Positions 1 to 46,294 of a stretch of DNA of 51,354 nucleotides are shown here, piece after piece (the first letter of the stretch is position 1; every line of letters starts with the position of its first letter). A program made the position numbers and the translations under genes. The DNA is from a virus. The notes under the pieces were generated by a model. The model was not told the origin of the DNA. It made no database searches and saw only the letters and a list, made by a program, of their open reading frames with translations. The stretch lies in IMG/VR virus record IMGVR_UViG_3300048114_000266, positions 1 to 51,354 of that record; one strand, 5' to 3'.

Positions 1-583
1 CCGCTTTCAGTTTCCCCCATGCGATTGCACCGACGATTAGGCCGGCCCCGATTATCGGCCACCCGACGGCGGCGATTATCAGCCCGGCGGTAATCGTCCC
101 CCATTTCAGCGCGCCCAAGACGTCGCCGCCCATGATTTTCCCGAACGTGATTGCTCCCGTGATTGCCGCCGCGCCGATTACGGGCCATTTGATAGCCGAC
201 ATGATTGCGCCGGCCGATATGCCGCCGCTTACCAGCCCACCGATACCGCCCGAAAGTAGACTTCCCAAGCCGCCGGATAGGATACCGCCGGCCGCCGCGC
301 CACCGCCAAGCCCCAACAGCCCGCCGAACTTCCCGGCGATACCTCCTAATGTGCTACGTAGAATCGTAAAGCGTTCGTCGGCGTTTTCGGCTTCTTCGGC
401 CGCTTCTTCGGCTTGGTCGGCCGTTTGGCCCATTTCGTCGCCAAGTTCGCCGACTTGCGACCCCGCCGACCGTGCCGTTTGACCAAGTCCCGAATATGAT
501 TCGTCAAGTTGGCCGACTTGGGCACGGGATTCTTCGACGCCCGTAACCTTCGCTTGGTATTCGATAGTGCCGATTTGAACCAT
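1..583 (-). CDS. Tape-measure-like tail protein, N-terminal segment; the gene crosses the contig junction and continues at 51354..50419
   Basis: ATG at 583-581 with an in-frame stop just upstream (611-613). Frame stays open to position 1 and is in phase with ORF 50419..51345 when the 127-bp terminal overlap is collapsed. Translation begins MVQIGTIEYQAKVTGVEESRAQVGQLDE, then Gly-rich hydrophobic repeats. Sits directly downstream of the G/GT chaperone pair. Confidence 0.55.
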   Translation of the reverse strand, partial: MVQIGTIEYQAKVTGVEESRAQVGQLDESYSGLGQTARSAGSQVGELGDEMGQTADQAEEAAEEAENADERFTILRSTLGGIAGKFGGLLGLGGGAAAGGILSGGLGSLLSGGIGGLVSGGISAGAIMSAIKWPVIGAAAITGAITFGKIMGGDVLGALKWGTITAGLIIAAVGWPIIGAGLIVGAIAWGKLKA

Positions 584-8780: not shown

Positions 8781-11528
8781 TTACGTCAAGTGATTAACGT
8801 GGGTGTCGTAGCGGTCTATCCAATCGTATAGCGTGTTTGGCGACACCTTGCCCCGTTCTTCGACGTCGTATTCGTCGGCTTCGACTAACCGCCGATTGAA
8901 TTCCCGAAGCGCGCCCCGCTTCGAACCCGATTCTTCTAAGCATTCACGTAGGAGGTTCGGAACGTGATTGCCCAAGACGTCTTCTAATTCCTGCATACGC
9001 CGCGTGGGGTTCGTCGCCTTCGCGACGCGCTTGACGACGTCCGCATACGTTTCGTCGTGGGCCTTCGACGCTTCGACGGGTTCGACGTTCGCGTCGCCGG
9101 CTTCGAATTGGTCCGCGAAGTCGTCGGCCGACGGCACGTCGACGTCCGGCGCGTCGTCGCCGGTCCCCGGAACCCGCACGAACGTATGCCGTTCGTTCGG
9201 GTGAATCGTATGCTTGCGGAACGATAGGTTATCGAAGTATTCGTCGTGAACGTTCCGTTCAGCGTCGATTAGTTCGGGGAGCGTGACCGGCGTCCCGCCG
9301 TGGTCCGGGTTCGTCATGTCTTTCAGGTCTTCGCACGCGTCGGTCGTGCGACTGTCGTCGGGACCGACCCATTTGAACTTCGCGTCGTCAAGCCCACGGT
9401 CGCGATAGCCTTCTTCGCGCGCTTCGTTCAGTACCTTAGCCGATTCGGTGCGCGCTATCGTTTCCAAGTCGTCGGGGTCCGCACGGGGGAGCGCGTCGCT
9501 AAGATTGTCGACGATTGAATCTAACGACCACCCTTGCGGGTTCGTCAGCGCGTCGCTAAGCGTGTCTTGAATCGTAGTAGCCACACGTCCCGGCACCGAC
9601 GCGAAGTCGCTGAACACGGCCCCACGGTCGACGACGTCTTCTAACGCGGACATGACGAAGTCGGGGACGTCTTCGTCTTCGGCCCACGCCCGCTTTTCTA
9701 TGTCGTCAAGCGACTTCGGGGCTATCTGTCGGTCGAACGCCCGCAACAGCGTCGTGTCTAACTTCGCGACTTCGTCTTTCGTCAGTCGGTCGCGGTCGCC
9801 GTCCCCGTCACTCCCGTTTCCCGAATCACCCTTCGTCGTGGGGCCTTGTTCGACGGCGTCGAAGTCTATGTCGTCGAAGTTAACGCCGTCGTATTTGTCG
9901 ATAAGGTCTTGCACCGTTCCGGGGCCGACGCCGAAGACTTCCGCATGTGGGTCGTGGGTTTCCGGCGGGTTCGGCGGGTAAACGACGTCGCCGCCGTCAG
10001 TATTCCGCGCCCGTTTCACGTCGAAGACGACGCCGCCTTCGTCGGCAAGGTCGTCTAAGAAGCGTTCGAAGTCGCCCGATTCGTGGTCTACCGCTTCCCC
10101 GCCGACGTGATAGGTAAGCGGGACGCCACCCTTCGAACGGTCGACGCGAATGTCGGCTTCGTCGGGGTCGTCGACCGACCCGAATAGGCCACCGCCGCCA
10201 CCGCCACCGCCGACGTCGCCTTCTTCGATTGGTCCGTCTTCGACCACTAACTTGCCGTCGCGGAAGGTGACGTCGCGGCCGGCGTTGGCCATTTCCTTCC
10301 CGGCGGTCGCTTGCGCTTCGATAACGTCGGCGCGCGTCTGACGTTCGTCGGCGGTTTGCTCCCGTTCGAATTCGAAGGCAAGGTCGTCGCTAATTTCGGG
10401 CCACACGTATGCCCGGTTAAGGGCTTCTTCTAATTGGCGAAGGGTGACGCGGAAACCGCGCTGTTTGTATGCTCCTTGCTGGGATTCGTCGGTGGCGCGA
10501 TTGACGTTTTCGAAGTCGAAACCCGCATACGACGGGTTAACCTTGAAGACCGACCCCAAGACCGTGACCCAATACTTCGAACGGTCAAGAATTTGTAGTT
10601 CCTGATAATTGTGATTTATCGCTTCGAAGTTTACGGGCGTCTTCGAATAGCCGACGCGGTGGCGTTCCCCTTCGTCCAAGCGCATGGATTCGACGAAGGT
10701 TTCCCAATCTTCGTCGTTCGGTAGTCCGCCGTAATCGTCTAAGGCTTCCGGGGAAAGGACACCGGGCGGGCCGCCTTGCATTAGGTCTAACCGCTCCTTT
10801 TCTGCAAGTTCTTCTAACAATTCGACTTCGTTTTGGGCCTTTTCTAAGGGGCCTTGCCCATAAAATCGGTCGGGGCGCGACGACCATTCGACCCACACAA
10901 TATCGTTAACGTCGAATTCGTCGGTCTTCTTCCCCTTGCTTTGCGACACTTGCACGAAGCCTTCGGTAATCCCGTGCCGGTCGACTTGCTTGAATAGCGA
11001 CGCGCTGTCGACCGGGACAAGTTCGGCGACTTCGTCACTATCTTCGTAGTAGTGCTTGACAAGCGTCGCGTCGCCCAATTCCAACAGTACCCGCGTCGTC
11101 GCTTCAAGCATGTCGCGGAACGACGCTTGCGCGGGCGGCAATTGCCGCATGTGCCTTTCGACCTTCGCTAAGGCTTCGTCGGAAATGTCGGCGTCTTCGT
11201 CGCGGGGTTTAATCGACCAATTCGCGGCGGCGACGTCTTGCGATAGCGTGTCGATATAGGCTTGCACGACGGCGTTCGCGGATATGTCGCGCAAGAAGAC
11301 GGGGTCGTAGGGCTTCGTCTTGGCGTTACCCTGAACGGCGTCGCGAACGTCGTCGTTTACGTTCACGCGCCGGTTAATATCACCTCCCTTTTCCGCTGTT
11401 TCCGGGGAATTGTACCGCTTGCGGCGTCGTGACCGGACCCGCTGACGGCGTTCGCGACCGCTACGGGCGTCGCCGCCGTCCGCGAAGGGTGACGTAATCC
11501 CCTTGACAAATTTACTAAGGCGCGACAT
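8781..11528 (-). CDS. Portal protein fused to a MuF/SPP1-gp7-like head morphogenesis domain
   Basis: ORF track, 915 aa, ATG at 11528. C-terminal half carries IARTESAKV, WVGPDDSRTTDACEDL and HPNERHTF; a Gly8 tract (around 10186-10215) separates the halves. Confidence 0.6.
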   Translation of the reverse strand: MSRLSKFVKGITSPFADGGDARSGRERRQRVRSRRRKRYNSPETAEKGGDINRRVNVNDDVRDAVQGNAKTKPYDPVFLRDISANAVVQAYIDTLSQDVAAANWSIKPRDEDADISDEALAKVERHMRQLPPAQASFRDMLEATTRVLLELGDATLVKHYYEDSDEVAELVPVDSASLFKQVDRHGITEGFVQVSQSKGKKTDEFDVNDIVWVEWSSRPDRFYGQGPLEKAQNEVELLEELAEKERLDLMQGGPPGVLSPEALDDYGGLPNDEDWETFVESMRLDEGERHRVGYSKTPVNFEAINHNYQELQILDRSKYWVTVLGSVFKVNPSYAGFDFENVNRATDESQQGAYKQRGFRVTLRQLEEALNRAYVWPEISDDLAFEFEREQTADERQTRADVIEAQATAGKEMANAGRDVTFRDGKLVVEDGPIEEGDVGGGGGGGGLFGSVDDPDEADIRVDRSKGGVPLTYHVGGEAVDHESGDFERFLDDLADEGGVVFDVKRARNTDGGDVVYPPNPPETHDPHAEVFGVGPGTVQDLIDKYDGVNFDDIDFDAVEQGPTTKGDSGNGSDGDGDRDRLTKDEVAKLDTTLLRAFDRQIAPKSLDDIEKRAWAEDEDVPDFVMSALEDVVDRGAVFSDFASVPGRVATTIQDTLSDALTNPQGWSLDSIVDNLSDALPRADPDDLETIARTESAKVLNEAREEGYRDRGLDDAKFKWVGPDDSRTTDACEDLKDMTNPDHGGTPVTLPELIDAERNVHDEYFDNLSFRKHTIHPNERHTFVRVPGTGDDAPDVDVPSADDFADQFEAGDANVEPVEASKAHDETYADVVKRVAKATNPTRRMQELEDVLGNHVPNLLRECLEESGSKRGALREFNRRLVEADEYDVEERGKVSPNTLYDWIDRYDTHVNHLT

Positions 11529-11565
11529 TCGTTATTTCCCCAATCCCGACGCGAACGCTTTAAAC

Positions 11566-12597
11566 TTAGTCACGCTGTCTTTCCGCCGATTCGACGTCGC
11601 TGTCGTGGGTACAATCCCCGAATACATGATAGTAGTACGTCCCTTTCGTCACGTCGCAACGGTCGATAACAGACGATACAGGTTCGTCACCGCGCCCCTT
11701 GTGTTCGCGCCGTAGTGTCTCACACTTCGACTTCGTCACCCGGTCGACGTCGGGATTCGGGGCGTCGCCACCGTGTAGACACCGCCCGAAAACGTGCCGC
11801 CGAATCGACGATTCGTCGCGTTCCATGTCGCCGGCTAACGCCGCGACCGGAACGCCGCCGCGATAGCGGGCGCGCAAGCGGTCGCATTCGGCCTTTTCTA
11901 TCGGACCCGGCGCGTTGGGTTCGGCCGGCGCGACGTCGACGTCACCGTGCCCACACGCGCCCGTAGCGTGCCGGTGGGCCGTGCCGGTCCCGACAAGACA
12001 CGCACGGGCGACGTCGGCAATCGTCACGCTGTCGTTCCGCCGATAGGTGCGCCGTATTCGGGCACACGTTTCCGCTCCTAATTCGTCGCGGCCGTAGTCG
12101 TTCGGGAAGTCGTGGTCGCACCGACCGAAGACGTGTCGGTTCACCGCGTTAGACGAACGGTAAAATTCGTCGCGAAGGTCGTCGACAGACGCGCCTTCGC
12201 GGAACGTTTCGCGCAAGCCCCGGCATTCCGACCGCGTGATTCGGGGCGACGTCGTCGCGTCGACGGGCGTGTCGTGGGCGCACCCGCCGGTCGCATGTCG
12301 GAAGACGACCGACGGGTGTAGGTCGGGATACGTGTCGACGACGTCTTTGGTCCGGTCGGCGTCGGCCATGTCTTGACGTATAGCCGCGCATTCTTCGACC
12401 GTCAGCCCGTCGACGACCGCGTCGGGGTCGCCGTTAGATACGTACCCGCGAATCGCGTCGGGGTCGCGGTCGTCGCGGTCGACGCGGGCGTATCTGACAA
12501 TCGCTTCGGCTTGGTCGCGACTAAAGTCAGTCCGCGACGACAGCGTGTCGACCCGGTCGACGTCGCCGGGAGTTAGTTCGACGTCGTCTAAATCCAT
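11566..12597 (-). CDS. Protein built from five tandem Cys/His modules
   Basis: ORF track, 343 aa. Five repeats with the pattern C-x2-(I/L)R ... H-x3-G-x-C-x-H, for example HATGGCAHD, HVFGRCDHD, HATGACGHG, HVFGRCLHG, HVFGDCTHD. Confidence 0.55.
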   Translation of the reverse strand: MDLDDVELTPGDVDRVDTLSSRTDFSRDQAEAIVRYARVDRDDRDPDAIRGYVSNGDPDAVVDGLTVEECAAIRQDMADADRTKDVVDTYPDLHPSVVFRHATGGCAHDTPVDATTSPRITRSECRGLRETFREGASVDDLRDEFYRSSNAVNRHVFGRCDHDFPNDYGRDELGAETCARIRRTYRRNDSVTIADVARACLVGTGTAHRHATGACGHGDVDVAPAEPNAPGPIEKAECDRLRARYRGGVPVAALAGDMERDESSIRRHVFGRCLHGGDAPNPDVDRVTKSKCETLRREHKGRGDEPVSSVIDRCDVTKGTYYYHVFGDCTHDSDVESAERQRD

Positions 12598-12600
12598 TCG

Positions 12601-12900
12601 TCACGTCTGACAGTCGGCACAAATCTTGTCGTGATTCGCGTGCCGTTTGGCCGTCGGGAGTAAGCACCGCTTACACCGGATTACCGTAGGTTGCCCACCT
12701 TCGAAGACGTCGTCGCCGAATCGAAGTAACATTTCGGCGTGGTCTTGGCAGATATACGCCCGGTGGCCCGCCGTTCGGAACACGAACGTCACGGCTTCGT
12801 TCCCACACACGGCGTCGGTCGGGCCGTCAGCCCCGACGGGAGGTTCGCCGCATGTCGAATCAATCGCGTCGGTATCGACCCCGTAGTCGTCGCTTCCCAT
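12601..12900 (-). CDS. Small zinc-finger protein
   Basis: ORF track, 99 aa, several Cys pairs (CGEP, CGNE, CQDH, CKRC, CADC). Confidence 0.45.
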   Translation of the reverse strand: MGSDDYGVDTDAIDSTCGEPPVGADGPTDAVCGNEAVTFVFRTAGHRAYICQDHAEMLLRFGDDVFEGGQPTVIRCKRCLLPTAKRHANHDKICADCQT

Positions 12901-12942: not shown

Positions 12943-13194
12943 TTAGTCGACGTCGAACGCGACGTCTACCGAATCGCACCCGTGGCATAGGCCGCCGTTA
13001 ACCCGTTCGTTTACGGCCAAGTAGAAGGCCGGCCGCGTCGTCGGAACCTGAATCGGGCCGTCGCATTCGCCACACGAAAGCGCGTCTTCGCTGACGGTGA
13101 CGACTTCCGGGCCGACGCTGACGTCGAATTCGCACCCGTAGGCAAGGGCTACCGCAAGCCCGCCCGAATCGAATAGGTCGTCGACGGCCGTCAT
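12943..13194 (-). CDS. Small Cys-containing protein
   Basis: Internal ATG at 13194 of ORF track 12943..13419 (the N-terminal part is Arg-rich and likely spurious); start overlaps the upstream stop; contains CGEC and CHGC. Confidence 0.4.
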   Translation of the reverse strand: MTAVDDLFDSGGLAVALAYGCEFDVSVGPEVVTVSEDALSCGECDGPIQVPTTRPAFYLAVNERVNGGLCHGCDSVDVAFDVD

Positions 13195-13751
13195 TACCGA
13201 CACGGAACGCGGTCGAAGTCGGCCCGCCCGTCCGATTCTTCGCCGCAATTCACGCACCGCGCGGTCGTGTGACCGTTCTGCAAGATTATGTAGTGTCCCT
13301 TGAACGGGAAGGCGCTGTCGACGTGAATGTCGTGGGGCTTCAAGCCGGCGTCTTCGACCGGCTTGCGCCCGTCCAAGTATTGCAGTAGCGCGGCGACGTG
13401 AACGCTGTCGACTTGCCACGTTTCCGATTGGAACGCAATACGCGCGTCGGCGACGTCGGCGTAAGCGGTGAATAGGCGGACCCTACTGTCGCCTTCGTGT
13501 TTCGACACGCCGGCCGGAACGACAATTTCCAAGCCGTCAAGCCGGCGTCTGAACCTCCATTCGTCGGCGTCGCGGTCGACCGGGTTCGATTCGACCGTGC
13601 CGTGTTCGACGGCCGCCTTCGCAAGCGCCCGATTCACCGGGCGGCGGTCGTGCGACACCCGAAAGTCGAAGTGGTCCGTCTTGTCGTAAGCCGCGAAGTC
13701 ACGCGGCGGGTCGCTGGGGTCCGGGGCGTTGGTCATGGGTGCGCTTGCCAT
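13194..13751 (-). CDS. Hypothetical protein
   Basis: ORF track, 185 aa, ATG at 13751 three nt after the upstream stop (alternative ATG 13736). Confidence 0.5.
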   Translation of the reverse strand: MASAPMTNAPDPSDPPRDFAAYDKTDHFDFRVSHDRRPVNRALAKAAVEHGTVESNPVDRDADEWRFRRRLDGLEIVVPAGVSKHEGDSRVRLFTAYADVADARIAFQSETWQVDSVHVAALLQYLDGRKPVEDAGLKPHDIHVDSAFPFKGHYIILQNGHTTARCVNCGEESDGRADFDRVPCR

Positions 13752-13754
13752 ATC

Positions 13755-14174
13755 TTAATCCCCCGACGTGTTTGCTTTATCGGTGCCGGTGTCTTCGCCC
13801 CAATCGTCACCGTACCGCATTTTCCGGGCGAACGACTTCGACGCGCCGTTCTTTGAGTTTTGTTTTTTGACTTCGTCGCGGTCGTAGCACCGACGGCACC
13901 GACCGCGATTTTCGACGCGGGAAAGTTCGCGAAGTACCCATTCAGTCCCGCCGCTATGTTCGACCTTGCACGCGGGCCGTGGGTGGGCGTCGTCGTGGGC
14001 TTCGGGCACGACGTTCCCGTCGTCGTCGTAGAAGACGACGTCGCCGTCGTCGTCAGTTTCGGGAACGTGAACGTCGCGGCTATGCTGGGACCGGACACGC
14101 ACGGCTACTTCTTCGCCGTCGTGATAGACGTCGGTAGCGATACTGTCGTCGGCGGTGGCGTGTGTGGTTGCCAT
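13755..14174 (-). CDS. Hypothetical acidic protein
   Basis: ORF track, 139 aa, ATG at 14174 preceded by a leader-cassette variant. Confidence 0.55.
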   Translation of the reverse strand: MATTHATADDSIATDVYHDGEEVAVRVRSQHSRDVHVPETDDDGDVVFYDDDGNVVPEAHDDAHPRPACKVEHSGGTEWVLRELSRVENRGRCRRCYDRDEVKKQNSKNGASKSFARKMRYGDDWGEDTGTDKANTSGD

Positions 14175-14230
14175 AGGTTCGCACCGTTAGCCCCTTCGTA
14201 ACCCCGGTATAAAATAGTGTCGCCGTTGGT
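14175..14230 (-). promoter_or_regulatory. Promoter-leader cassette (variant)
   Basis: Gene-strand order cgacact-ATTTTATA ... ggtgcgaacc-t-ATG. Confidence 0.5.
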
Positions 14231-14251
14231 TTGGTCGGTGTTAACCGAAGC

Positions 14252-14647
14252 CTACGGTCCCGAATTCGATTCGCCGACGCCCTTCGGAACTTCGAATTCG
14301 TCTTCGAATTCCGACCACGGGAGCGCGAACACGCGCCACTTGTCCGGCGGTTCGACGTCGCCACGGCCGACGTTCCGATACACCGCGAAGCCGTTCATGC
14401 TCCCCAGCACTTCGACCCGTTCCCCGGTGGATTCGCGGGACAAGACCATGCCGATTAGCGCGTCGACGTAGTCGGCGAAGTCGTGGGGTCGTTCGTGTTC
14501 GCCTTCGTCGCCGAAGTCGCCACGGAAGACGAACATTTCGCCGTCGTCTTCGTGGGCGATTGCTTGGACGTCGGCCGACGGGACCGTGATTTGCGCTTCG
14601 GCGTCGGCCGGGCGGCCGTCCGGGTCGTCTTCGAAGTCGTCAGTCAT
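14252..14647 (-). CDS. Hypothetical acidic protein
   Basis: Internal ATG at 14647 of ORF track 14252..14746, 5 nt from the upstream stop; begins MTDDFEDD. Confidence 0.5.
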   Translation of the reverse strand: MTDDFEDDPDGRPADAEAQITVPSADVQAIAHEDDGEMFVFRGDFGDEGEHERPHDFADYVDALIGMVLSRESTGERVEVLGSMNGFAVYRNVGRGDVEPPDKWRVFALPWSEFEDEFEVPKGVGESNSGP

Positions 14648-15356
14648 GGCTTTCACCCGCGTCGAAGTCGCCAAGTTCCCCGTCGTCGCTGTTTTGGGTA
14701 ACTGTCGTCGAAATTCCGGGGTCGCCACTTTCACTTTCACTTTCACCGCGCGGGGTTCCGGTGTCGGGGTCGACGTCAGCGAAGTCGATAACGACGTCGT
14801 GTTCGAAGTCGTCGGGGTCGTGGCCCGCCGCTTCTAACGCTCCCCGTGTTCGGTCTTCGCCGAAGACGTTTACCGCGACGTTCGCGACGGCTTGGGCCGC
14901 CGGCCCGTCGGTATGTCTTAGTATCCGCGTCAGCGTTTCGTCGGTGAATGAGTCTTCGCGGTGGCGTTCCGAATCGAAGTAGTATTCGACCGGCACGCGG
15001 ACAAGGCGACCGCGCGGATAGTCGTAGGACTTCGCCCCCGCCGACGTCCGAATGTCTTCGACTGTCGTCGGCAAGAAGGCGCATTCGAAGATAGTGTCGT
15101 CGGGCGACACGGGGAGAAATGGGTGGGCCTTGTAGGTGGTCAAGTCGAAGTCGTTGCTGTCGAAGTAGTCGACCGCCGTGAACGCCGCCACGCGCCACAC
15201 GTATAGCGGCCGATTCTTGACCAAGTCGATAACGACGTCGCCCCGTCGAATGTCGGACGGGAACGCGTCGACGTTTTCTTGCAGTATGCTCCTTGCGTCA
15301 CGTTCGGCGTCGTCGAATGACTTGTCGACAGCGCCTTCCGGTTCGTGGCTTGTCAT
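14640..15356 (-). CDS. Hypothetical protein
   Basis: ORF track, 238 aa. Confidence 0.55.
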   Translation of the reverse strand: MTSHEPEGAVDKSFDDAERDARSILQENVDAFPSDIRRGDVVIDLVKNRPLYVWRVAAFTAVDYFDSNDFDLTTYKAHPFLPVSPDDTIFECAFLPTTVEDIRTSAGAKSYDYPRGRLVRVPVEYYFDSERHREDSFTDETLTRILRHTDGPAAQAVANVAVNVFGEDRTRGALEAAGHDPDDFEHDVVIDFADVDPDTGTPRGESESESGDPGISTTVTQNSDDGELGDFDAGESHD

Positions 15357-15443
15357 GGTTCGGTCGGTCGCGTCGGTCGCGACGCTGTCGACTTCGCCGG
15401 GTGGGTTTGAAAGCGTGTCGGTAGTAAACCGATTGGTGGAGGG

Positions 15444-15641
15444 TTATTCTAAGTCGGCGCGCCGGACAAGACACCCGGACAAGCCGGATTGGCCTTGGCT
15501 GTTAGGGTCGCAAACCCAAGTCCCGGTCGCGCCACATTCGACGCACCGATACTTTCCGGTTCCGCCACGAACCGTTATTCGCTCATACACTTCTTCGACT
15601 TCCCCACCGCATTCGCAAACGAAGCCGTGTTCGTCGGACAT
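15444..15641 (-). CDS. Mini zinc-ribbon protein
   Basis: ORF track, 65 aa, CEC...CVEC pairs. Confidence 0.45.
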   Translation of the reverse strand: MSDEHGFVCECGGEVEEVYERITVRGGTGKYRCVECGATGTWVCDPNSQGQSGLSGCLVRRADLE

Positions 15642-15642
15642 T

Positions 15643-16020
15643 CTACCGGCCCCCGTAATTCGGGAAGCGTTTTTCCATTAGTTCGGCAAAGCGTTCGCGG
15701 GCATAGGCCCCCCAATCCCGACCGTCGTGTTCGACGACGTCGGTGTCGGAACCGATTAGGTCGAAGTCGTGGTCGTGCGAATCCGACTTTCGCCAACCAC
15801 CTTCGACGTCGCGGTCGTTCCGTGCGTCGCGGTAAGGGTATTGGTAATACCATTCTTCGCGGTAAACCCGAAGCGACCGCGTGTCGGCGTCGCGAACGAA
15901 CTTTTCGACCACGACGTCACTTTCAGTCTTCGCCAGCATTACGACGACGCCGTCGCGGGGTCGGTATTCGTATAGGCGGGCGCAGGTATTTTCTCCCGGC
16001 GTTGCGGTTTCTTGTGGCAT
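15643..16020 (-). CDS. Hypothetical protein
   Basis: ORF track, 125 aa, ATG at 16020 directly preceded by the promoter-leader cassette. Confidence 0.55.
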   Translation of the reverse strand: MPQETATPGENTCARLYEYRPRDGVVVMLAKTESDVVVEKFVRDADTRSLRVYREEWYYQYPYRDARNDRDVEGGWRKSDSHDHDFDLIGSDTDVVEHDGRDWGAYARERFAELMEKRFPNYGGR

Positions 16021-16075
16021 GGGTTCGCACCTACTACCCCCTAACTGCCATACGTACTTAAGCCTGTCGGCGTTA
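16021..16075 (-). promoter_or_regulatory. Promoter-leader cassette
   Basis: Gene-strand gccgacagg-CTTAAGTA-cgtatggcagttagggggtagtaggtgcgaaccc-ATG. Confidence 0.6.
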
Positions 16076-16293
16076 CACTACACTTCCCGAACCCACATGA
16101 CGCGACATTCGTAACCTTCCGACACTTTGGACATAATCCAATCTACTTGTGAATTGCTAAGGGCGTCGCGGCCTTTCGGTTTAATGCCGACAGGTTTATT
16201 ACCGTGGGGTGCGTATCTACACCCGGACACCGACGCGGTGGCCCGGCGACCCGTCCGACCGGCGTGGTCGTCGACGACAGCAAACCCGTGACC

Positions 16294-16725
16294 ATGACGA
16301 CCAACTACGACGACCTACGACACCGTATCGGCGTATTGCGCGGCGGCCAACTATCGGTAAAAGTCCCGGCCGACGTCATTCCCGAAGTTAACGACGCCCA
16401 TTCGTTCCGTACCATATCGGAACGGGAAGGCGAAGACGGCGTCGTGACCGTGACGCTTGAAGAAGGGTTTACGCGCTTGGAGGTTCACGGCGTGACCGCC
16501 GTCTTCGACGGCTATCGCTACTTCCCGCGTGACCCCGACACCGTCGACTACGACCTTCGGGGCGACGTCGGCGACGCGAAGGTCGGCTTCGAAAGTGACG
16601 ACGGCCACGCCCCACTAACCGAAGACGTCCAAACCATGCACCCGGTTCGGAACATGACCGTTCATAGCCTTGTGAACGGCTTCGAACGCGGGAACGTCGA
16701 ACCGCTCCCGAAGCGGAACGACTGA
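16294..16725 (+). CDS. Hypothetical protein
   Basis: First ATG (16294) of ORF track 16204..16725; upstream gccgacagg-TTTATTA at 16185-16200 resembles the shared BRE/TATA. Confidence 0.5.
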   Translation: MTTNYDDLRHRIGVLRGGQLSVKVPADVIPEVNDAHSFRTISEREGEDGVVTVTLEEGFTRLEVHGVTAVFDGYRYFPRDPDTVDYDLRGDVGDAKVGFESDDGHAPLTEDVQTMHPVRNMTVHSLVNGFERGNVEPLPKRND

Positions 16726-16768: not shown

Positions 16769-18244
16769 CTATGCCTTGTCGACGTGCGACGACGTCGACG
16801 ACCCCGAAGACGACGACCGGCGGCTTTCCGTATAGATAGCGTACCGAAGCGCGTCGGCCGCGTGGTCGTCGACGTCGCTACCGCCGACGTCTTCTTCGGT
16901 GTAGCCAAGCAATTCCTTCCGCGTTTCTTCGCACCGTTCAGCGACCAACAGCCCCGGCCGACCGTCGGCGTCTTCCCGAAGTCGATACCGGACTTCGTCA
17001 ATCCCGGCGTCGACTGACTTGTCGGCCTTGCCCGCTTTCCACCCGCGCGACCGCATTTTCTGAATGTCGCCGGGTTCGTGTTCGGAATGGATTCGGCCGC
17101 TTGGCTTGTCTGAAAGCCAATATTCGTCGTGTCGCGGCCCGCCGATTATGTCTTCGACGTGCGTCCCCGAACGGTAAAATTCGTCTACGACGATATATTG
17201 CCCGGCGTGGGTCTTCGCTATTTCAAGCATGACGCGGGGGTCGTCCCACCCGGCGTCGTAGCCATACATGCGCCACGACCCGCCGATTGCCGTATCGTAT
17301 TCGGGGATTGTCCCGTCGGATTCGACGTCGACGACGTGACTATGCCGGCGGAAGTCCGAATACACACGGCCTTCGTCGGCTTCGAATGACCCGTGTAGTG
17401 CTTGGTTTTCCCTCCCCGTTCCGCCGTGAATCCGCCGGATTCGCGCCCGGTCGTCTTCCGTTAGGAATGGGTTATTATCGGTCGACGCGGTGATTAACTT
17501 CGTCCGAATGTTCAGCGTATTTCCGTCGGCGGGGTCGACACCTTGTTCTAAAATGTCCCATGCGTCGTTAAACCCGTTCCCGGTCGTCGTGATTAGGATA
17601 CAGCGCGGGCCGGCGGGCTTGTAGTCTAAGCGTTCGCCTATCGTCTTCCGAACGCCGTTCAGGTCGTCGTAATATGCGGCTTCGTCAAGCCACGCGAATG
17701 AGAATTTGCCACCGTCGTAGCGGTTCGGCTTGTCGGCCGACGCCAAGATAATGACCGACCCGTTTATCAGCGTGATTACGCCGTCTTGTTTGCTGAACGA
17801 CCGGACGATTGGGGAGTTTTCCGGGTCGCCGTCGCCCAAGAATGGGTCTAAATTCTCCCCCGGAAGTTCTTCGAAAAGGACGGGGTACGTCGTCTTTTTC
17901 GATTCGGCGTAGGTCTTCCCCATAGCCAAGACGCGCGCCGGGGCGAAGTCGTTCGCCAAAGCGACTTCGATACAGGTTCGCGCCCCGGTGACTGACTTCC
18001 CCGAACGGTAGCCGGCGACTATGCCGATAATGTCGAAGTCCCCGGAATAGACGGCCGTCCGCGCTTCCCGCTGGGGTTTCCAAAACGCCCACGTAATATC
18101 TATGTCAGTCCCGTCGACGTCGACGACCGCGCCTTCGCGCCGTAGAAGTTCGACGTCTTCGTCGGATAGGTCGGCCGCGCCCGGCGCGAATATCGGCGTG
18201 CCGTCGGGCGCTGTTAGCCGCGTCGGTTCGGAAGTCGTCGACAT
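16769..18244 (-). CDS. terL: Terminase large subunit
   Basis: ORF track, 491 aa; Walker A GYRSGKS, Walker B-like WLDEAAYY, C-terminal acidic nuclease-like region ending DHAADALRYA. Confidence 0.8.
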   Translation of the reverse strand: MSTTSEPTRLTAPDGTPIFAPGAADLSDEDVELLRREGAVVDVDGTDIDITWAFWKPQREARTAVYSGDFDIIGIVAGYRSGKSVTGARTCIEVALANDFAPARVLAMGKTYAESKKTTYPVLFEELPGENLDPFLGDGDPENSPIVRSFSKQDGVITLINGSVIILASADKPNRYDGGKFSFAWLDEAAYYDDLNGVRKTIGERLDYKPAGPRCILITTTGNGFNDAWDILEQGVDPADGNTLNIRTKLITASTDNNPFLTEDDRARIRRIHGGTGRENQALHGSFEADEGRVYSDFRRHSHVVDVESDGTIPEYDTAIGGSWRMYGYDAGWDDPRVMLEIAKTHAGQYIVVDEFYRSGTHVEDIIGGPRHDEYWLSDKPSGRIHSEHEPGDIQKMRSRGWKAGKADKSVDAGIDEVRYRLREDADGRPGLLVAERCEETRKELLGYTEEDVGGSDVDDHAADALRYAIYTESRRSSSSGSSTSSHVDKA

Positions 18245-19907: not shown

Positions 19908-20131
19908 TAGTTTCGGGCCGTCAGTTTGACGCGGTCGGCACTATCGTCGGGGACAGCGCCGTCGGGCACGACGTAGACTTCGCCCGTCTTTTCCAAGTAG
20001 TCGAACGCTTCTTCGACGTCAGCGTCGTCGTAGTCGGCCGCGACTTGGGCCTTGACGTCGTCGACCGGCCGCCCCTTTGGGCCGCCGCCGGCAATCGCGT
20101 CTTTCAGCGCGGCAAGGGCGTCGCGGTTCAT
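19907..20131 (-). CDS. Small hypothetical acidic protein
   Basis: ORF track, 74 aa; ATGA overlap with the upstream gene. Confidence 0.45.
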   Translation of the reverse strand: MNRDALAALKDAIAGGGPKGRPVDDVKAQVAADYDDADVEEAFDYLEKTGEVYVVPDGAVPDDSADRVKLTARN

Positions 20132-21978
20132 TCGTCACCTCCTACGCCCTTGTCCCAATCGACGGGCGTCCCGCAACGTGGGCACCGTGGCCCGGCGTGC
20201 CCGCCGCATTCGTCACACGCGGCTTCGTCATGTTCGTCGCACGAACACGACGGGACGAAGAAGTCTTCGGGTAGCGACTTCCGTTCGCACCCGTGGCACA
20301 CGTAGGCCGTGACCGGCTTCGCGGCCGGCGTCGACGCGCCGACGTCTACCCGGACGTTCCAAATCCCGAAGCCCGTGTCGACTTCGTGCCATTCGCCGGC
20401 CTTGCCGTCACGTTGGGCGGCTAACGTCCCGTCGCCTTTGTCTTGTACCGCGATATGCACGTCGGCCGCTCCTTGCCGTCGCCGACTGTATGGGACGAAT
20501 TGGTCGAAGACGTCATTCCGTGGGAAGTTCAAGTCGCTTTCCGTGCCGAATTCCTTGCGGAAGTCTTCGATTTGTTCGGTCGTCGCCGGTTCGAAGCCCC
20601 ACGGTTCCCGCGCTTTCGCCCGGTCGATAATCGCGTCTAATTGGTCGCTTGTCCGGTCGTCGTCGGGGCCTTCCCACGCGATTCGGTAGGGTTCCGGCGT
20701 GTGTTGGGACATGATAGCCTGAACTATACGAAGGGCGTGTCGCGGGCCTTCGATTGGGTCGTGCGCCCATTCTTCCCCGTCGACGTCAGTCGCCGCATAT
20801 GTCCCTTCGGTCGATTCTTCGAAGTGACCTATACAGTCAGCGCAAAACGGTAGGTCAAGCGTGAACCCGCTTGGCAATTGATAGCGGCGAACCGTGTCGG
20901 TGTCGTTCGTACATTCGAACGTGACACACTTCGACCGAACCGGGACGTCGTTATTTTCGGCGATTGCGTCGGCGATTTGTTCGGCGACTTCGCGGGGGTC
21001 GCTGTCGGTCAAGAAGACGTCTATATTGCCTTCGACCCATTCTTCTATCGGGCCGACAGGCGGCCGGTCGGGACTTTCCAAATTGTCGACGGTGTCGTCT
21101 AAGGCGACACGAATGTCAGACGCGACCCGTTCGGCGACGTCTTCGGGCGTGTGTTCGTCGGTGATACCTTCCGACGCAAGGTCGTCGTACCGGGCGGCAA
21201 GGTCTTCGAACGCTTCGACCATGTCGACCGGGGCCGACGGGCCAATTTCTTGGTCGCGCCAACCGTCGGGGAAGTCCGACAGTCGGACGCCCAAGTCTTG
21301 AAGGCGGTCGTCAGCCCCGTCGCGGTCGGGGTCGGGAAGCGCGTGGTCGTAGTCGTCGACGACGTCGCGGAAGATACGAAGCGCGGACACCGACCGAAGT
21401 TCGTCGTGTAGCCGCGTGTCGACGTCGCCCAAGAAGGCGGCGACCGTGTCTTCGGACACGCCGACGACGTCGTCGGGGACGTCACGCACCGGGACTTCGA
21501 CGGGTTCGACGCGCGTTTCGACCGGACGAAGGTGAATCGTTAGTTCGTCAGTCGCTTGGGCGATTGTCGACCGCACGGCTTCGTCGGCACTAAGGCCGGG
21601 TTCGACGTCGACGTCGCCGTATTTCGCCCCGCCGTATGCCTTCGTCACGCGGACGTCGCCTTTTTCGATAAGCCGATTCACGAACGTCGGCCCCGTCGAC
21701 GGTTCGCCCATGCCGCCGTTCGCGAACGTTACGCGAACGTAATAGCGGGGTTCGTGGTCTTTCTCCCCCGGCGCGTGCGACCCCATTAGGTTCACCGACG
21801 CGATTCGGTCGTCGTCGGCGGCGGCCGCTTTGATAGCCGCGTGTAGTGCCGCATTCGTGGCGTGGTCGTCGCGCACACGCCGCCGGAAGTAGTCGTCGGC
21901 CGATACGGGGCGGAACGTGTCGCGGCCGTCAGCGCGTCGCGTGGCGGGCGCGTCGGCGACGTCGTCTTCGTCGGTCAT
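20128..21978 (-). CDS. Large hypothetical protein with C-terminal Cys-rich zinc-binding region
   Basis: ORF track, 616 aa; C-terminus CHGCERK ... CSCDEHDEAACDECGGHAGPRCPRCG. Confidence 0.6.
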   Translation of the reverse strand: MTDEDDVADAPATRRADGRDTFRPVSADDYFRRRVRDDHATNAALHAAIKAAAADDDRIASVNLMGSHAPGEKDHEPRYYVRVTFANGGMGEPSTGPTFVNRLIEKGDVRVTKAYGGAKYGDVDVEPGLSADEAVRSTIAQATDELTIHLRPVETRVEPVEVPVRDVPDDVVGVSEDTVAAFLGDVDTRLHDELRSVSALRIFRDVVDDYDHALPDPDRDGADDRLQDLGVRLSDFPDGWRDQEIGPSAPVDMVEAFEDLAARYDDLASEGITDEHTPEDVAERVASDIRVALDDTVDNLESPDRPPVGPIEEWVEGNIDVFLTDSDPREVAEQIADAIAENNDVPVRSKCVTFECTNDTDTVRRYQLPSGFTLDLPFCADCIGHFEESTEGTYAATDVDGEEWAHDPIEGPRHALRIVQAIMSQHTPEPYRIAWEGPDDDRTSDQLDAIIDRAKAREPWGFEPATTEQIEDFRKEFGTESDLNFPRNDVFDQFVPYSRRRQGAADVHIAVQDKGDGTLAAQRDGKAGEWHEVDTGFGIWNVRVDVGASTPAAKPVTAYVCHGCERKSLPEDFFVPSCSCDEHDEAACDECGGHAGPRCPRCGTPVDWDKGVGGDE

Positions 21979-42431: not shown

Positions 42432-42485
42432 GTTACTACTACACTACACTACACTACTACTAACTAACACTATACTACTACACGA
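42432..42485. repeat. AT-rich low-complexity ACTAC pentanucleotide tract
   Basis: ttactactacactacactacactactactaactaacactatactactacac, immediately upstream of the promoter of the 42535 gene. Confidence 0.7.
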
Positions 42486-42493
42486 CCACTTAA

Positions 42494-42506
42494 CCGACAC
42501 TTATTT
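42494..42506 (+). promoter_or_regulatory. BRE/TATA-like promoter of the regulator gene
   Basis: ccgacac-TTATTT about 30 nt upstream of ATG 42535. Confidence 0.5.
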
Positions 42507-42534
42507 GCAGTTAGTGGTCTTTTGGTGGTCTTGC

Positions 42535-43191
42535 ATGTCGAAAGACGGTTTGGTGCGACTTCCCCGAATCAGCGAATCGCTCCGTGACGAATTCCGCGAC
42601 GACGTCGAAGACCGCTTCGGAACGGTACGCGGTCACTACCGTTCGGAAGTCGAAAAAGCCCTTCGTGAATACCTGAACGGGTCGCACGGCGGGGATACTG
42701 ACGACCGCCTTCGCCGGTTAGAAAACGCGGTCGAACGTATCGACGAACGAACCGCCGCCCTACACGCTGACGAATCGGGAAAAAACAAAAAGGATTCAGA
42801 CGTTTCCCCCACGACCCAAAATCGGATTGAATCAATCCGTGACCGTGTCGAACGCGAATCGGGAACCGGCCCCGTTCACGAAGCGGTCGTGCGGCAAGCA
42901 ATCGAAGACGTCGCCGGCCATAGTGACCCGACCATTCGGCGGTACATGCAAATGCTTACCGATAGGGAAATACTGTATCCCCACCCGAACCGCGACACGA
43001 AGTTCGTTTACGGGGAAGAAGAATATGCGTGCATGATTCAAAGCATGGCCGAATCGGGAGCAATCACCGAAAGCGAATATTGGGACGTCGTCACCGGCAT
43101 GGGCGGCGAAAACGACTTCCGCAATATCTTGGAACGCGCCGGCTACGACGACGGCGGTGACGACAAGCCCGCCGGTCGAACCTTTCAGTAG
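42535..43191 (+). CDS. Putative DNA-binding regulator (N-terminal RHH-like, C-terminal winged-helix-like)
   Basis: Internal ATG at 42535 of ORF track 42427..43191. N-terminus LVRLPRISESLRDEFRDDVEDRFG fits a strand-helix-helix pattern; C-terminus HEAVVRQAIEDVAGHSDPTIRRYMQMLTDREILYP fits a winged helix. Confidence 0.5.
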   Translation: MSKDGLVRLPRISESLRDEFRDDVEDRFGTVRGHYRSEVEKALREYLNGSHGGDTDDRLRRLENAVERIDERTAALHADESGKNKKDSDVSPTTQNRIESIRDRVERESGTGPVHEAVVRQAIEDVAGHSDPTIRRYMQMLTDREILYPHPNRDTKFVYGEEEYACMIQSMAESGAITESEYWDVVTGMGGENDFRNILERAGYDDGGDDKPAGRTFQ

Positions 43192-43228
43192 CGACACGCA
43201 CTTGCCGACCGTTCCCGTTAGTTAGGCC

Positions 43229-43729
43229 ATGTCTTCCGCGAAGGGCGATAGGTGGGAACGGCATTACGTGAACGCGCTTAGTGCCGACGACCCCGACGAC
43301 GATAGCGACGACGTCGAACGGGTCGGTATCGACGACTTCGCGTTAGTCGAACCGTTCACGGCGTTACGCCTTCCCGCTTCCGGCGCGGGGCGTTCCGCCG
43401 ACCTTCCCGACATTCATGCGTGGCTTTGCCCCGACGCCCATACAGTCCGACAGTACGCCGCCGAATCGAAGGCGGGGGCCGACCGGGTGTATTTGGATAA
43501 CGACGAAGTAGACGCGCTTGTGCGCTACGCTGACGACACGGGGGCGACGCCGGTCGTGTTCGTTCATATCGACCACGAACACGCACATGACGACTTAGGC
43601 GGCGATTACGTCGTCGCTATTGACGAACTACATTCGACAGCGTCGGGCTACACGTTCACGAAGACCCGCGACGCCCCGACAGCCCGGACGTTCGCCGAAT
43701 GGGTCGACGACCCCCAATCGGTCGCTTAG
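43229..43729 (+). CDS. hjc: Holliday junction resolvase (Hjc-like)
   Basis: ORF track, 166 aa. GDRWERHYVNAL ... LRLPASGAGRS ... PDIHAW ... AAESKAG ... VYLDNDEVDALVRYADDTGATPVVFVHI follows the pattern I recall for archaeal Hjc (G.xFER ... SGS ... PD ... E.K ... Y ... P..AV). Confidence 0.55.
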   Translation: MSSAKGDRWERHYVNALSADDPDDDSDDVERVGIDDFALVEPFTALRLPASGAGRSADLPDIHAWLCPDAHTVRQYAAESKAGADRVYLDNDEVDALVRYADDTGATPVVFVHIDHEHAHDDLGGDYVVAIDELHSTASGYTFTKTRDAPTARTFAEWVDDPQSVA

Positions 43730-44160
43730 TCGCCACGGTCGCGGTCGCTTCGTCCCTCCCGATACAGGTTCGGCCGGTCAAGGTCGACCCCAAGTTCTTC
43801 GGCGATTGCCGCTTGGTTAGAAATAGACACTTCTTGGCGGCGTTCCATTTTCCGAACGTCGCCGTGTATGTCTTCGACTTCGTCGCGAAGGTCGGCGTGC
43901 ATTTCTTCGAATTCTTCGCGTAGTTCCGTGTTCGCTTCGTCAAGGCGGTCGAACCGACTTTCTGAATCGGCAAGGTGGCCGTCCGACGTCGGGTCGTCTT
44001 CGTCGCCGAAGACGCGCCGATACACCGGGACCGCGAAGGTAAAGTGCCGTCTGACTAACCACGCCACGACGACCACAAGGCCGCCTAAGACGAACGTCAC
44101 CGCCCAAAGCCCCAGCGACGACGGCGCAATCGGGCCGACTTGCAGTAGTGTCGACGTCAT
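43726..44160 (-). CDS. Membrane-anchored coiled-coil protein, last gene of the tail operon
   Basis: ORF track, 144 aa; N-terminal hydrophobic helix, then charged helical region. Confidence 0.5.
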   Translation of the reverse strand: MTSTLLQVGPIAPSSLGLWAVTFVLGGLVVVVAWLVRRHFTFAVPVYRRVFGDEDDPTSDGHLADSESRFDRLDEANTELREEFEEMHADLRDEVEDIHGDVRKMERRQEVSISNQAAIAEELGVDLDRPNLYREGRSDRDRGD

Positions 44161-44164
44161 AGTA

Positions 44165-46261
44165 TCACCTCCCCGTCCGGCCTTCGACAGTAGTTTCGAC
44201 CATATGCCCCGACGAATCCGTATTGTCGACGATTACGCCGACCGATTGTTCGCCACCCGTCGAATTCGTGTAGGAGGCAAGCGGCGACCCGGTTTCGTCG
44301 TCGAAGACGGTAGACCCGTCGCCCGACAGTATCGTCGATTGGGTCGTGTAGCCGCCCGAATTGTCGAACGTGACAAGTTCGACGTTCACGCCCGTCGGCA
44401 TGGCTTGGGCTAACCCGGTCGTCAGCGTCGCTTTGTCTATTTCCATAGTTTCGCCGTCGGCTAAACTATCGACCACGACGACGGCTTGCGTCGTGTTCCC
44501 GACGTTCCGCGACAGCGACCCCGACACGCGGTCGTGTGGTCGGCTAAGTTCCGGTCTTTGAATGGTTCCCGCCGCGTCGACTAAGGTAGACCCCGTGATA
44601 GTATCTAACCGTTCGTGCAAGACGGCACGCCGGTAGTTTACGCCACCCGACCCGTCGGCTTCCCCACGAAGGCTTAGGATAGTGCCGCCGCCGACTGAAT
44701 ACGATTGGCCATATTCCCGCCCGGCGTCCGCACTTCCGTCGACCGGGGCCGAAATGGTCGTGTTCCCCCACGAACGATTTGCCGGGAATGCGACCGCCGC
44801 GCCCCCTTTTGGAATGAACGACCCGAACGTTTCGAAGTCGGAAGTAGAATCTATATTTCCGTATAGTGTAAGCAGTCCGTCGACCCGAAAGTCGGTAGTG
44901 ACGCGACTGCCGCCACCCGTGTTCGGGTGGTCGCCCGTTACGTAAATCCCCGACTGTGGCGAAAATCCGACCGGAACCGCGACGTCTTTCGAAGACAGTC
45001 CACCCGACCCGTCAGCGTACCCCAAAATCGAAAGGAATGGTTGGCCGGCCACGCCGAACGAATACGACACTTCGTCGCCCGAATTTTCGATTCCTGAAAG
45101 GGGGTGGTCGAACGAACTTCCCCGGAAGGATACGTCACCGCCGACGATAAGTTCGCTGAACACGCGGACGTATTCGCGTTGCACGCCGCCCGAACCGTCG
45201 GCGTCGACGGCGGCCCACAATTGCGAAGACCCACCCGCCGAAAGGCCCACGCCGACGGCGGAACCCGCCGACGCATTCGAATCGACCGGGGCTTCGGCAA
45301 GGGAATTTCCGGGCGTTCTGTTTGCGGGGAACGATATGGCCGCCCCACCCTTCGGGATAAATGCCCCGAACGTTTTGAAATCCCCATTAATATCTATATT
45401 ATCGTAAGATGATATTGCCCCATTTACTTGAAGCGACCCCGTGAATTGGTTATCGGCGGAGGCTTCGCTATTTGACCCGGTGACATACATCCCTCCGCCC
45501 CCGTGTATTTGGCCGTATATGTCGACGCTACCAGATATTTGGTTATCCGCTTGTGCGTCGGGGTGCGACCCGGTTACAAGAAGCCCGCTGTCGTATGTCG
45601 TCGGCTTAGCGAATTGCACTTCGCCGTTTTGGATACCTCCCGACCCGTCCGATTCGGTGTAGATTTTCGCGAATTCTTCGCCGTCGACCGCGAACGTGTA
45701 TGATACTTCCGTCCCGGCGGACGTGTTCGATTCGACTTGAATGTCGAATAACGGGCCGAATTGCGTCGTTCCCGGCGTCGCTTCGAACCCCGACGACAGT
45801 AGTGCCGAAGCCGCCGGGTGCGCCCGCCAATTGTGAATATCGCCTTCGGTGACGTCGCCGGCCGCGTGGGGGACCGCTACAAGAGCCAACAGTAGCCCGT
45901 CCGACGGCGTTTCGGGAGGTTCGGGGTTCGGGGCCGGCGTACCTTCCGCGACGGCGTAGGTGCCCGCACTACTGTCGAAATACACCAAGTCGACGCGACG
46001 GTCGTCTTGGCCCGACGTCGTCGTTTGCGGCCCGGTCGACAGCGTGAACGACGTCGACGACGGGGAGTAGGTAGCACTATCATACGACAAGTTCGTCGCG
46101 GCGGCTACCTGAATCCCCATAGCGGTATTGGGGTCGGGCGTCACTTGCGCGTCGCCGTTGTTTTGGATACCATTACCGACGAACGCTTCGGTAATCGCTT
46201 CTAAATATCGGCCGAAGAAGGTTCCCCCTTGTGGGGCTTCGAACGGTTCGGCTTCGGGCAT
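44165..46261 (-). CDS. Tail fibre or receptor-binding-like protein with internal repeats
   Basis: ORF track, 698 aa; duplicated block DFKTFGAFIPKGGAAISFPANR / DFETFGSFIPKGGAAVAFPANR; Gly/Ser/Thr-rich. Confidence 0.6.
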   Translation of the reverse strand: MPEAEPFEAPQGGTFFGRYLEAITEAFVGNGIQNNGDAQVTPDPNTAMGIQVAAATNLSYDSATYSPSSTSFTLSTGPQTTTSGQDDRRVDLVYFDSSAGTYAVAEGTPAPNPEPPETPSDGLLLALVAVPHAAGDVTEGDIHNWRAHPAASALLSSGFEATPGTTQFGPLFDIQVESNTSAGTEVSYTFAVDGEEFAKIYTESDGSGGIQNGEVQFAKPTTYDSGLLVTGSHPDAQADNQISGSVDIYGQIHGGGGMYVTGSNSEASADNQFTGSLQVNGAISSYDNIDINGDFKTFGAFIPKGGAAISFPANRTPGNSLAEAPVDSNASAGSAVGVGLSAGGSSQLWAAVDADGSGGVQREYVRVFSELIVGGDVSFRGSSFDHPLSGIENSGDEVSYSFGVAGQPFLSILGYADGSGGLSSKDVAVPVGFSPQSGIYVTGDHPNTGGGSRVTTDFRVDGLLTLYGNIDSTSDFETFGSFIPKGGAAVAFPANRSWGNTTISAPVDGSADAGREYGQSYSVGGGTILSLRGEADGSGGVNYRRAVLHERLDTITGSTLVDAAGTIQRPELSRPHDRVSGSLSRNVGNTTQAVVVVDSLADGETMEIDKATLTTGLAQAMPTGVNVELVTFDNSGGYTTQSTILSGDGSTVFDDETGSPLASYTNSTGGEQSVGVIVDNTDSSGHMVETTVEGRTGR

Positions 46262-46294
46262 GTGGCGAAGTATCCGCTACCGCGTCTTAGTAGT

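Follow-up and report, generated by a model that had tools for sequence, protein, structure and literature searches.

Among described proteins, those closest to the one analysed here are Cbp1 and Cbp2, archaeal proteins that bind CRISPR DNA repeats and in which tandem imperfect tri-helical helix-turn-helix (HTH) repeats lie on one chain and are joined by short linkers. These are chromosomal crenarchaeal proteins of two or three units, and Cbp2 is stabilised by a Cys7-Cys28 disulfide and has a basic linker between the domains (PMC3597662). Related tri-helical domains of the HTH_7 and HTH_23 families occur in resolvase, Tc3 and IstA, those of Myb/SANT, paired-domain and Reb1-type arrays are eukaryotic and metal-free, and classical C2H2 arrays consist of many small metal-stabilised tandem modules of variable copy number, each displaying a recognition helix. 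Here we report on a virus sequence of 51,354 nucleotides (IMG/VR record IMGVR_UViG_3300048114_000266, positions 1 to 51,354; this whole stretch is called the window), which originates from a haloarchaeal tailed virus distantly related to HHTV-2 and HCTV-2 (Saparoviridae). Next to its portal gene, an open reading frame (ORF) encodes a 343-residue protein, in the following called the multi-HTH protein, in which an N-terminal domain is followed by five HTH units that each carry a conserved set of two Cys and two His residues.

An initial annotation, made from the letters of the window, had proposed five tandem Cys/His modules, and this repeat was borne out by motif counts and by self-alignment of the protein. 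All five units, of about 45 residues each, contain the motif C-x2-[IL]-R and, 27-34 residues further on, the motif H-x2-G-x-C-x-H. The peptides quoted as examples in the initial annotation are correct letter by letter, and the second motif had been given there as H-x3-G-x-C-x-H, with one x more than the sequence shows. When the protein was shuffled 20,000 times, H-x4-C-x-H occurred with a mean of 0.0165 and a maximum of 2, compared to 5 occurrences in the protein itself, and for C-x2-[IL]-R, also observed 5 times, the shuffles gave a mean of 0.09 and a maximum of 3. Each of the ten local alignments between pairs of units scored above shuffled sequences, with z values of 3.8-16.6 and with 0-1 of 500 shuffles matching the observed score. 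The five-unit repeat is not a product of chance. The first Cys residues of the units are found at positions 70, 125, 178, 238 and 292, giving a period of 53-60 residues, and the linkers between units are short (9-14 residues).

A homologue search among 5.8 billion proteins led to 34 homologues, all of them metagenomic, with 37-80% identity to the window protein and nearly all with a length of about 340 residues. The initial annotation had staked its proposal on conservation of the Cys/His positions in homologues, and indeed 18 of the 20 ligand positions (all ten Cys and eight of the ten His) are invariant or at least 90% conserved in this set, as are the Arg that follows the first Cys and the Gly that precedes the second. 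Unit 4 is the least conserved unit; C238 is invariant wherever this unit exists and C273, H268 and H275 are conserved in at least 90% of cases. Among 170 extracted units, the C, R, G and C positions are occupied in 170 and each His in 169, counts that are partly enforced by the regular expression used for extraction. The number of units varies among orthologues, with six in P0024 and four in P0034 and in the more distant P0182, and in both four-unit orthologues it is unit 4 that has been lost. The N-terminus is also conserved in the homologues; the N-terminal domain has a net charge of -10 and its AEAIVRF motif is kept. When ligand columns were removed, helix 3 was the most conserved helix in every unit, with values of 0.65-0.92 as compared to 0.44-0.77 for helices 1 and 2, the value of 0.92 being reached in unit 1. 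The five recognition helices are unlike one another, yet each of them is kept between orthologues.

Structure prediction with AlphaFold2, employing the homologue alignment, gave three helices for each unit and a three-helix N-terminal domain, with a mean predicted local distance difference test (pLDDT) of 82.3 and a predicted TM-score (pTM) of 0.47, indicating that the units are well defined in the model and that their mutual orientation is undefined. For a single unit modelled from 107 unit sequences, the pLDDT was 92.7, with predicted helices at residues 4-15, 20-27 and 31-38 and an ordered tail. This three-helix bundle, with a helix 2-turn-helix 3 arrangement, is that of the tri-helical HTH superfamily (resolvase/Tc3/homeodomain-like). 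In comparisons of folds the module scored 7.6 with the HTH of the IstA transposase, 6.7 with that of the Tc3 transposase, 5-6.6 with sigma region 4, LuxR-type, resolvase/invertase and Myb domains, and 5.5 with the HTH of the G20C small terminase. The best match of the unit profile in the PDB is Cbp2 (2LVS; E 4.4e-5), of which two stretches, corresponding to both repeats, were matched and which also appeared at rank 6 in Foldseek. An exhaustive search of 1.84 billion representatives with the unit profile led to 687 proteins at E <= 1e-3, and these include canonical bacterial-type HTH_7/HTH_23 arrays without Cys/His residues, such as P0089 (E 2.4e-23), which itself matches Pfam HTH_7 with 2.9e-74. 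Also, a relative with six units of the C/H/C/H type (P0040, locus L008) passes the Pfam thresholds for HTH_7 (68.6 versus 23.8) and HTH_23 (53.5 versus 24.6). The module belongs to the HTH superfamily as a divergent member to which a Cys/His clamp has been added; it does not represent a new zinc-finger fold. The initial annotation had called it an unrecognised type, which holds in so far as no Pfam, NCBIfam or PHROG family matches at threshold, but the fold is an ordinary one.

Compared to the described systems, the multi-HTH protein resembles Cbp1 and Cbp2 in its architecture and differs from them by having five units and by the C/H/C/H ligands, which the Cbp proteins lack. The resolvase, Tc3 and IstA domains are also devoid of the Cys/His clamp, and the window protein, in contrast to these, has no attached catalytic domain. 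No sequence relationship to the eukaryotic tri-helical arrays was detectable. Classical C2H2 fingers have a beta-beta-alpha fold with the ligand order C-C-H-H (C-x2-4-C-x12-H-x3-5-H), whereas the units described here are all-helical, without strands in the models, and follow the pattern C...H-x4-C-x-H. A nuclease of the HNH or His-Me type, considered for the H-x2-G-x-C-x-H motif, does not fit an all-helical fold of 45 residues that is repeated five times, and a Rieske-like Fe-S site differs in both fold and motifs.

In the models, helix 1 of each unit bears the first Cys in its first turn, helix 3 bears the first His in its last turn, and the C-x-H pair is located in the tail beyond the invariant Gly. 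We defined the family by C-x3-R in helix 1, followed after 27-34 residues by H-x2-G-x-C-x-[HC], which spans the end of helix 3 and the tail, a definition to which all five units of the window protein conform. Among 633 units from 180 proteins, 503 have the set C/H/C/H and about 84 (~13%) have C/H/C/C, and units that lack nearly all ligands occur mostly in proteins without any complete set, including the bacterial-type HTH_7/HTH_23 arrays. The exchange is also seen between orthologous units, as units 1 and 5 of P0182 show C-x-C where the window protein has C-x-H. Invariance of the ligands, their all-or-none occurrence and the His to Cys exchange at a single position point to a tetrahedral structural metal site, most plausibly for Zn(II), and lend indirect support to the metal-binding array that the initial annotation had suggested. 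What appears to be new is the Cys/His/Cys/(His or Cys) ligand set on an HTH, apparently an undescribed variant of a common fold; in the literature, we found neither zinc-binding or tandem HTH proteins in haloviruses nor a description of this Cys/His signature.

Hundreds of clusters of metagenomic proteins contain the module, in 1-12 copies per protein, and most of those whose context was examined are virus-like. The cultivated Halorubrum virus HRTV-4 carries the module as well, with one C/H/C/H unit in gp12 and with one C/H/C/C and one C/H/C/H unit in gp13, a protein of 238 residues (BFVD structural match R4TKB2) labelled 'DNA binding protein, HTH domain' in RefSeq. These HRTV-4 members, which have the same module and ligands as the window protein, surfaced only when a more canonical relative was used as query; they differ by having 1-2 units and by their location in a left-arm block of small genes and not beside the portal gene. 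A search by tblastn with the window protein gave no match in isolated phages, archaeal viruses or plasmids, full-length alignment and clade-specific patterns revealed no relative in 185,579 species-representative genomes, so that neither a provirus nor a host was identified, and a word-indexed search with the 46-column unit profile gave no match. In a metagenomic halovirus-like element with TnpB (L008, 7133-11329), seven consecutive paralogous genes, six of them with 1, 1, 6, 3, 2 and 1 C/H/C/H units and one with a weaker unit, represent a local expansion of the family; they adjoin ParB-like and MCM genes and match the DNA-binding PHROGs 664, 3855, 6831 and 32656. Two further loci (L012, L013) have members in similar blocks of small genes, and other family members sit among early, regulatory or replication-type genes. 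Among the first-batch cluster members listed, 0 of 11 had a database name, and clusters of the second batch carry automatic labels only, such as 'predicted transcriptional regulator' or 'IS30 family transposase'. The protein P0039 (711 residues) has 12 units, eleven of them C/H/C/C and one with C-x-H. In two proteins of about 550-565 residues a BRCT domain was indicated, above the Pfam cut-off and fused to four units in P0050 (37.2 versus 21.3 bits) and below it in P0060 (17.3 bits).

The mechanism best supported by these data is that of a beads-on-a-string DNA binder composed of an acidic N-terminal helical domain and five metal-stapled HTH modules, to which we assign a probability of roughly 0.6. 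In each module, a single structural metal ion, most likely Zn(II), would be coordinated by the four ligands. It would hold helix 3, at its end, and the tail against the beginning of helix 1 and might thereby stabilise the minimal bundle of 45 residues. Together, the five modules would read one long composite site of about 40-60 bp and not an array of direct repeats. In favour of DNA binding, helix 3 stands out in every unit as the most conserved helix, and the units are near-neutral to basic (net charges of +4 for unit 3 and +2 for unit 4) in a very acidic proteome with pI values of 4-5.

The positions of the multi-HTH ORF, its domains and the adjoining features are given in Table 1. On the minus strand, the gene order is TerL (16769-18244), a region with one plus-strand ORF and a probable promoter, small ORFs, the gene for a Cys-rich protein with a Zn-ribbon-like appearance (ZnF99), the multi-HTH gene, the gene for a portal-Mu F fusion, and those for protease and major capsid protein. 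The initial annotation had placed the multi-HTH ORF between the portal gene and an early-gene block; the portal gene does adjoin it, but its other flank is occupied by small Cys-rich ORFs that form a cassette, with TerL beyond them, and not by early genes. Likewise, the small zinc-finger gene announced as its neighbour exists, but in the direction of transcription it precedes the ORF and does not follow it. The order ZnF (about 100 residues), multi-HTH, portal was kept in all 11 distinct loci examined. Either these three or, in addition, genes for proteins of about 185 and about 86 residues in front of them were seen in L002, L003/L004/L007, L005, L006, L011 and L014-L017, and the 95-residue neighbour of the four-unit orthologue P0182 is a ZnF99 homologue, too. 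ZnF99 is homologous to gp30 of HHTV-2 (phrog_23116; L001 13127-13561), a gene that sits 3 nt upstream of TerL, which is the usual position of a small terminase gene. In HHTV-2, TerL directly adjoins the portal gene and there is no multi-HTH gene.

Table 1. Positions in the window of the multi-HTH ORF, its N-terminal domain and units, and the features adjoining it
Feature	Position	Strand	Remarks
Multi-HTH ORF, 343 aa	11566..12597	minus	ATG start, TAA stop
N-terminal domain, aa 1-64	12406..12597	minus	three predicted helices, no Cys/His ligands
Unit 1, aa 65-109	12271..12405	minus	ligands C70/H101/C106/H108; R74
Unit 2, aa 120-163	12109..12240	minus	ligands C125/H155/C160/H162; R129
Unit 3, aa 173-218	11944..12081	minus	ligands C178/H210/C215/H217; R182; net charge +4
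Unit 4, aa 233-276	11770..11901	minus	ligands C238/H268/C273/H275; R242; least conserved unit
Unit 5, aa 287-332	11602..11739	minus	ligands C292/H324/C329/H331; R296
ZnF99, 99 aa, Cys-rich, Zn-ribbon-like	12601..12900	minus	3 nt before the start of the multi-HTH ORF
TATA-like box TTTAAAG	11558..11564	minus	directly past the multi-HTH stop codon, ~30 nt upstream of the portal ATG
Portal-Mu F fusion gene	8781..11528	minus	directly downstream; neighbour in every orthologous locus examined

A TATA-like box was found at the junction between the multi-HTH and portal genes. In all nine junctions aligned (window, L002, L003, L005, L011 and L014-L017), this box lies 29-31 nt before the portal ATG and the core TTAAAG is invariant; often it overlaps the multi-HTH stop codon, and an A-rich 'AACGA' stands just before the portal ATG (window 11529-11565). 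Such a spacing between box and ATG is that of haloarchaeal promoters in which a TATA box is followed by a very short leader. This geometry suggests that the head-morphogenesis operon has a promoter of its own, beginning where the multi-HTH ORF ends, and since the box abuts the stop codon, the multi-HTH ORF would be the last of one transcription unit and the head operon would start there. The multi-HTH protein, made from a transcription unit of which its own gene is the last, could then act on the conserved TATA-like promoter of the head operon.

Several observations weigh against a DNA-binding protein of this kind. The whole multi-HTH protein has a net charge of -19 and its linkers, with net charges of 0, -2, -3 and -2, are neutral to acidic and thus unlike the basic linker of Cbp2. 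No family of Pfam, PHROGs or NCBIfam is matched at its gathering score, HTH_7 (PF02796) and HTH_23 (PF13384) included, the best Pfam scores being those of TetR_N (14.7 bits) and HTH_20 (14.6 bits), and a Foldseek search of the PDB with the full-length model gave nothing significant (best E 0.096), probably due to the undefined relative orientation of the units. That the four ligands of a unit come close together is taken from the topology of the model. Searches for tandem and dispersed repeats around the locus returned GAC/GTC-rich, codon-driven matches only and no candidate target site. However, as the recognition helices differ from each other and each is kept between orthologues, one composite, non-repetitive target would be expected and not a repeat array, in agreement with the absence of such an array from the DNA. 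Finally, the adjacency to the promoter is circumstantial evidence for regulation, and a position at the side of the portal gene would also fit a packaging function.

With these points considered, we take the multi-HTH protein to bind DNA sequence-specifically. Regulation of a late promoter appears to be its most likely function, and recognition of a packaging site is the main rival. Tentatively, we favour a factor that regulates the abutting head-operon promoter or has an architectural function there, because relatives of the protein occupy regulatory neighbourhoods and because the gene ends exactly at a conserved promoter. A packaging-site factor, for which the odds appear poorer, is suggested by the fixed adjacency to the portal gene, by the link between the ZnF99 homologue gp30 and TerL and by the lack of a recognisable TerS; in that case, five tethered HTH units and the Zn-ribbon partner would jointly stand in for the small terminase and mark viral DNA for TerL and portal. 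In its more specific form, which we regard as unlikely, the five-HTH chain and its Zn-ribbon partner would be the packaging-specificity factor of this haloarchaeal siphovirus clade without recognisable TerS, replacing a ring of 8-12 TerS subunits with one HTH each. A TerS subunit combines a single HTH with an oligomerisation domain that forms the ring, and the TerS gene usually lies immediately upstream of TerL, whereas the multi-HTH protein has five HTH units and no coiled-coil core in the model, its gene is 4.2 kb away from TerL, and no TerS family in Pfam, PHROGs or NCBIfam matched it. The taxonomy paper on archaeal tailed viruses mentions neither TerS nor the module.

The modules could also bind proteins instead of DNA, as known for SANT domains and for sigma region 4 with anti-sigma factors, and serve as a scaffold, for example in head or portal assembly. 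We consider this rather improbable, since the recognition helix is the most conserved element, the nearest relatives in sequence (Cbp2, HTH_7/HTH_23 arrays) are DNA binders and the family is spread over non-structural gene contexts. Still less probable is a host-directed, Cbp-like factor that subverts defence or transcription by binding to repeat DNA of the host, for instance CRISPR repeats, or to further host loci. Cbp2 is the only solved protein with significant profile similarity, and clusters of paralogues with 1-12 units suggest the fast diversification that is typical of host-interaction genes, but the resemblance to Cbp2 does not go beyond a generic HTH and the position of the gene is conserved inside the morphogenesis region. 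As to the Cys and His residues, they might form a regulatory metal or redox sensor, as in ArsR/SmtB proteins and zinc-containing anti-sigma factors, or stabilising disulfides as in Cbp2 (PMC3597662), and the sub-threshold Pfam matches, which for single units too include the ArsR-type families HTH_20 and HTH_5, would be in line with a sensor. Two Cys and two His per unit, at a fixed spacing and invariant across all units of every array, and an exchange of His for Cys at one position only are the pattern of a tetrahedral structural site, and the models show no wing, beta-hairpin or dimerisation helix as required for a winged HTH of the ArsR/SmtB type. Furthermore, the haloarchaeal cytoplasm is reducing. 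A sensor or a disulfide is accordingly given little credence here, and we retain the structural metal clamp.

If the clamp binds zinc, the module would represent a distinct and apparently undescribed design of a minimal HTH, in which a metal staple ties the beginning of helix 1 to the tail and to the end of the recognition helix. It would be a building block of variable copy number (1-12 units), the HTH counterpart of zinc-finger arrays at multimolar salt. The module also provides a handle on several hundred unannotated metagenomic protein clusters and a testable candidate for a late-gene switch or for the missing packaging-specificity factor in a group of archaeal tailed viruses. If the protein is merely another viral HTH regulator, the outcome would be a useful annotation and no surprise.

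Some further features of the neighbourhood were noted. The C-terminal ~85 residues of the portal protein (residues 824-908) match phrog_37024 and, weakly, HTH_28 and HTH_23, which may point to an HTH-like tail of the portal fusion. Between TerL and the portal region, where HHTV-2 has no such genes, lies a series of small ORFs on the minus strand (12943-16020), and its last four genes are a cassette conserved in L003 and L014-L017. Pairs of C-x2-C are present in the ORF of about 86 residues at 12943-13190 (SCGECDG...CHGCDS), at the C-terminus of the 185-residue ORF at 13194-13751 (CVNCG...) and in a 65-residue ORF at 15444-15641 (CECGG...CVECG). Just downstream of TerL, a plus-strand ORF (16204-16725; 173 residues, acidic) alone breaks the minus-strand block, and an AT-richer stretch at ~16020-16200, which may be a divergent promoter region, holds the element CTTAAGTA about 35 nt before the next minus-strand ORF. 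Several C-x2-C pairs also occur near the C-terminus of an acidic protein of 616 residues (20128-21978, minus strand) that has no PHROG match.

The genome has a G+C content of ~60% and encodes very acidic proteins. An exact direct repeat of 127 bp is present at the two ends of the window (1-127 and 51228-51354), and the contig probably closes into a circle, corresponding to a complete genome of about 51.2 kb. This terminal overlap may be a k-mer artefact of the assembly; a genuine overlap would be compatible with a genome that is circular or circularly permuted. Tandem Repeats Finder reported a 126-bp tandem repeat in 2.3 copies at 51067-51354. Another tandem repeat, the AT-rich TACTACTAACTAACACTACAC, is present in 2.3 copies at 42434-42481. 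The AT skew changes its sign at ~40 kb, where the coding strand switches, and the G+C content falls to 0.545 at 46-48 kb; the stretch from 42434 to 48000 may be an origin or a regulatory region.
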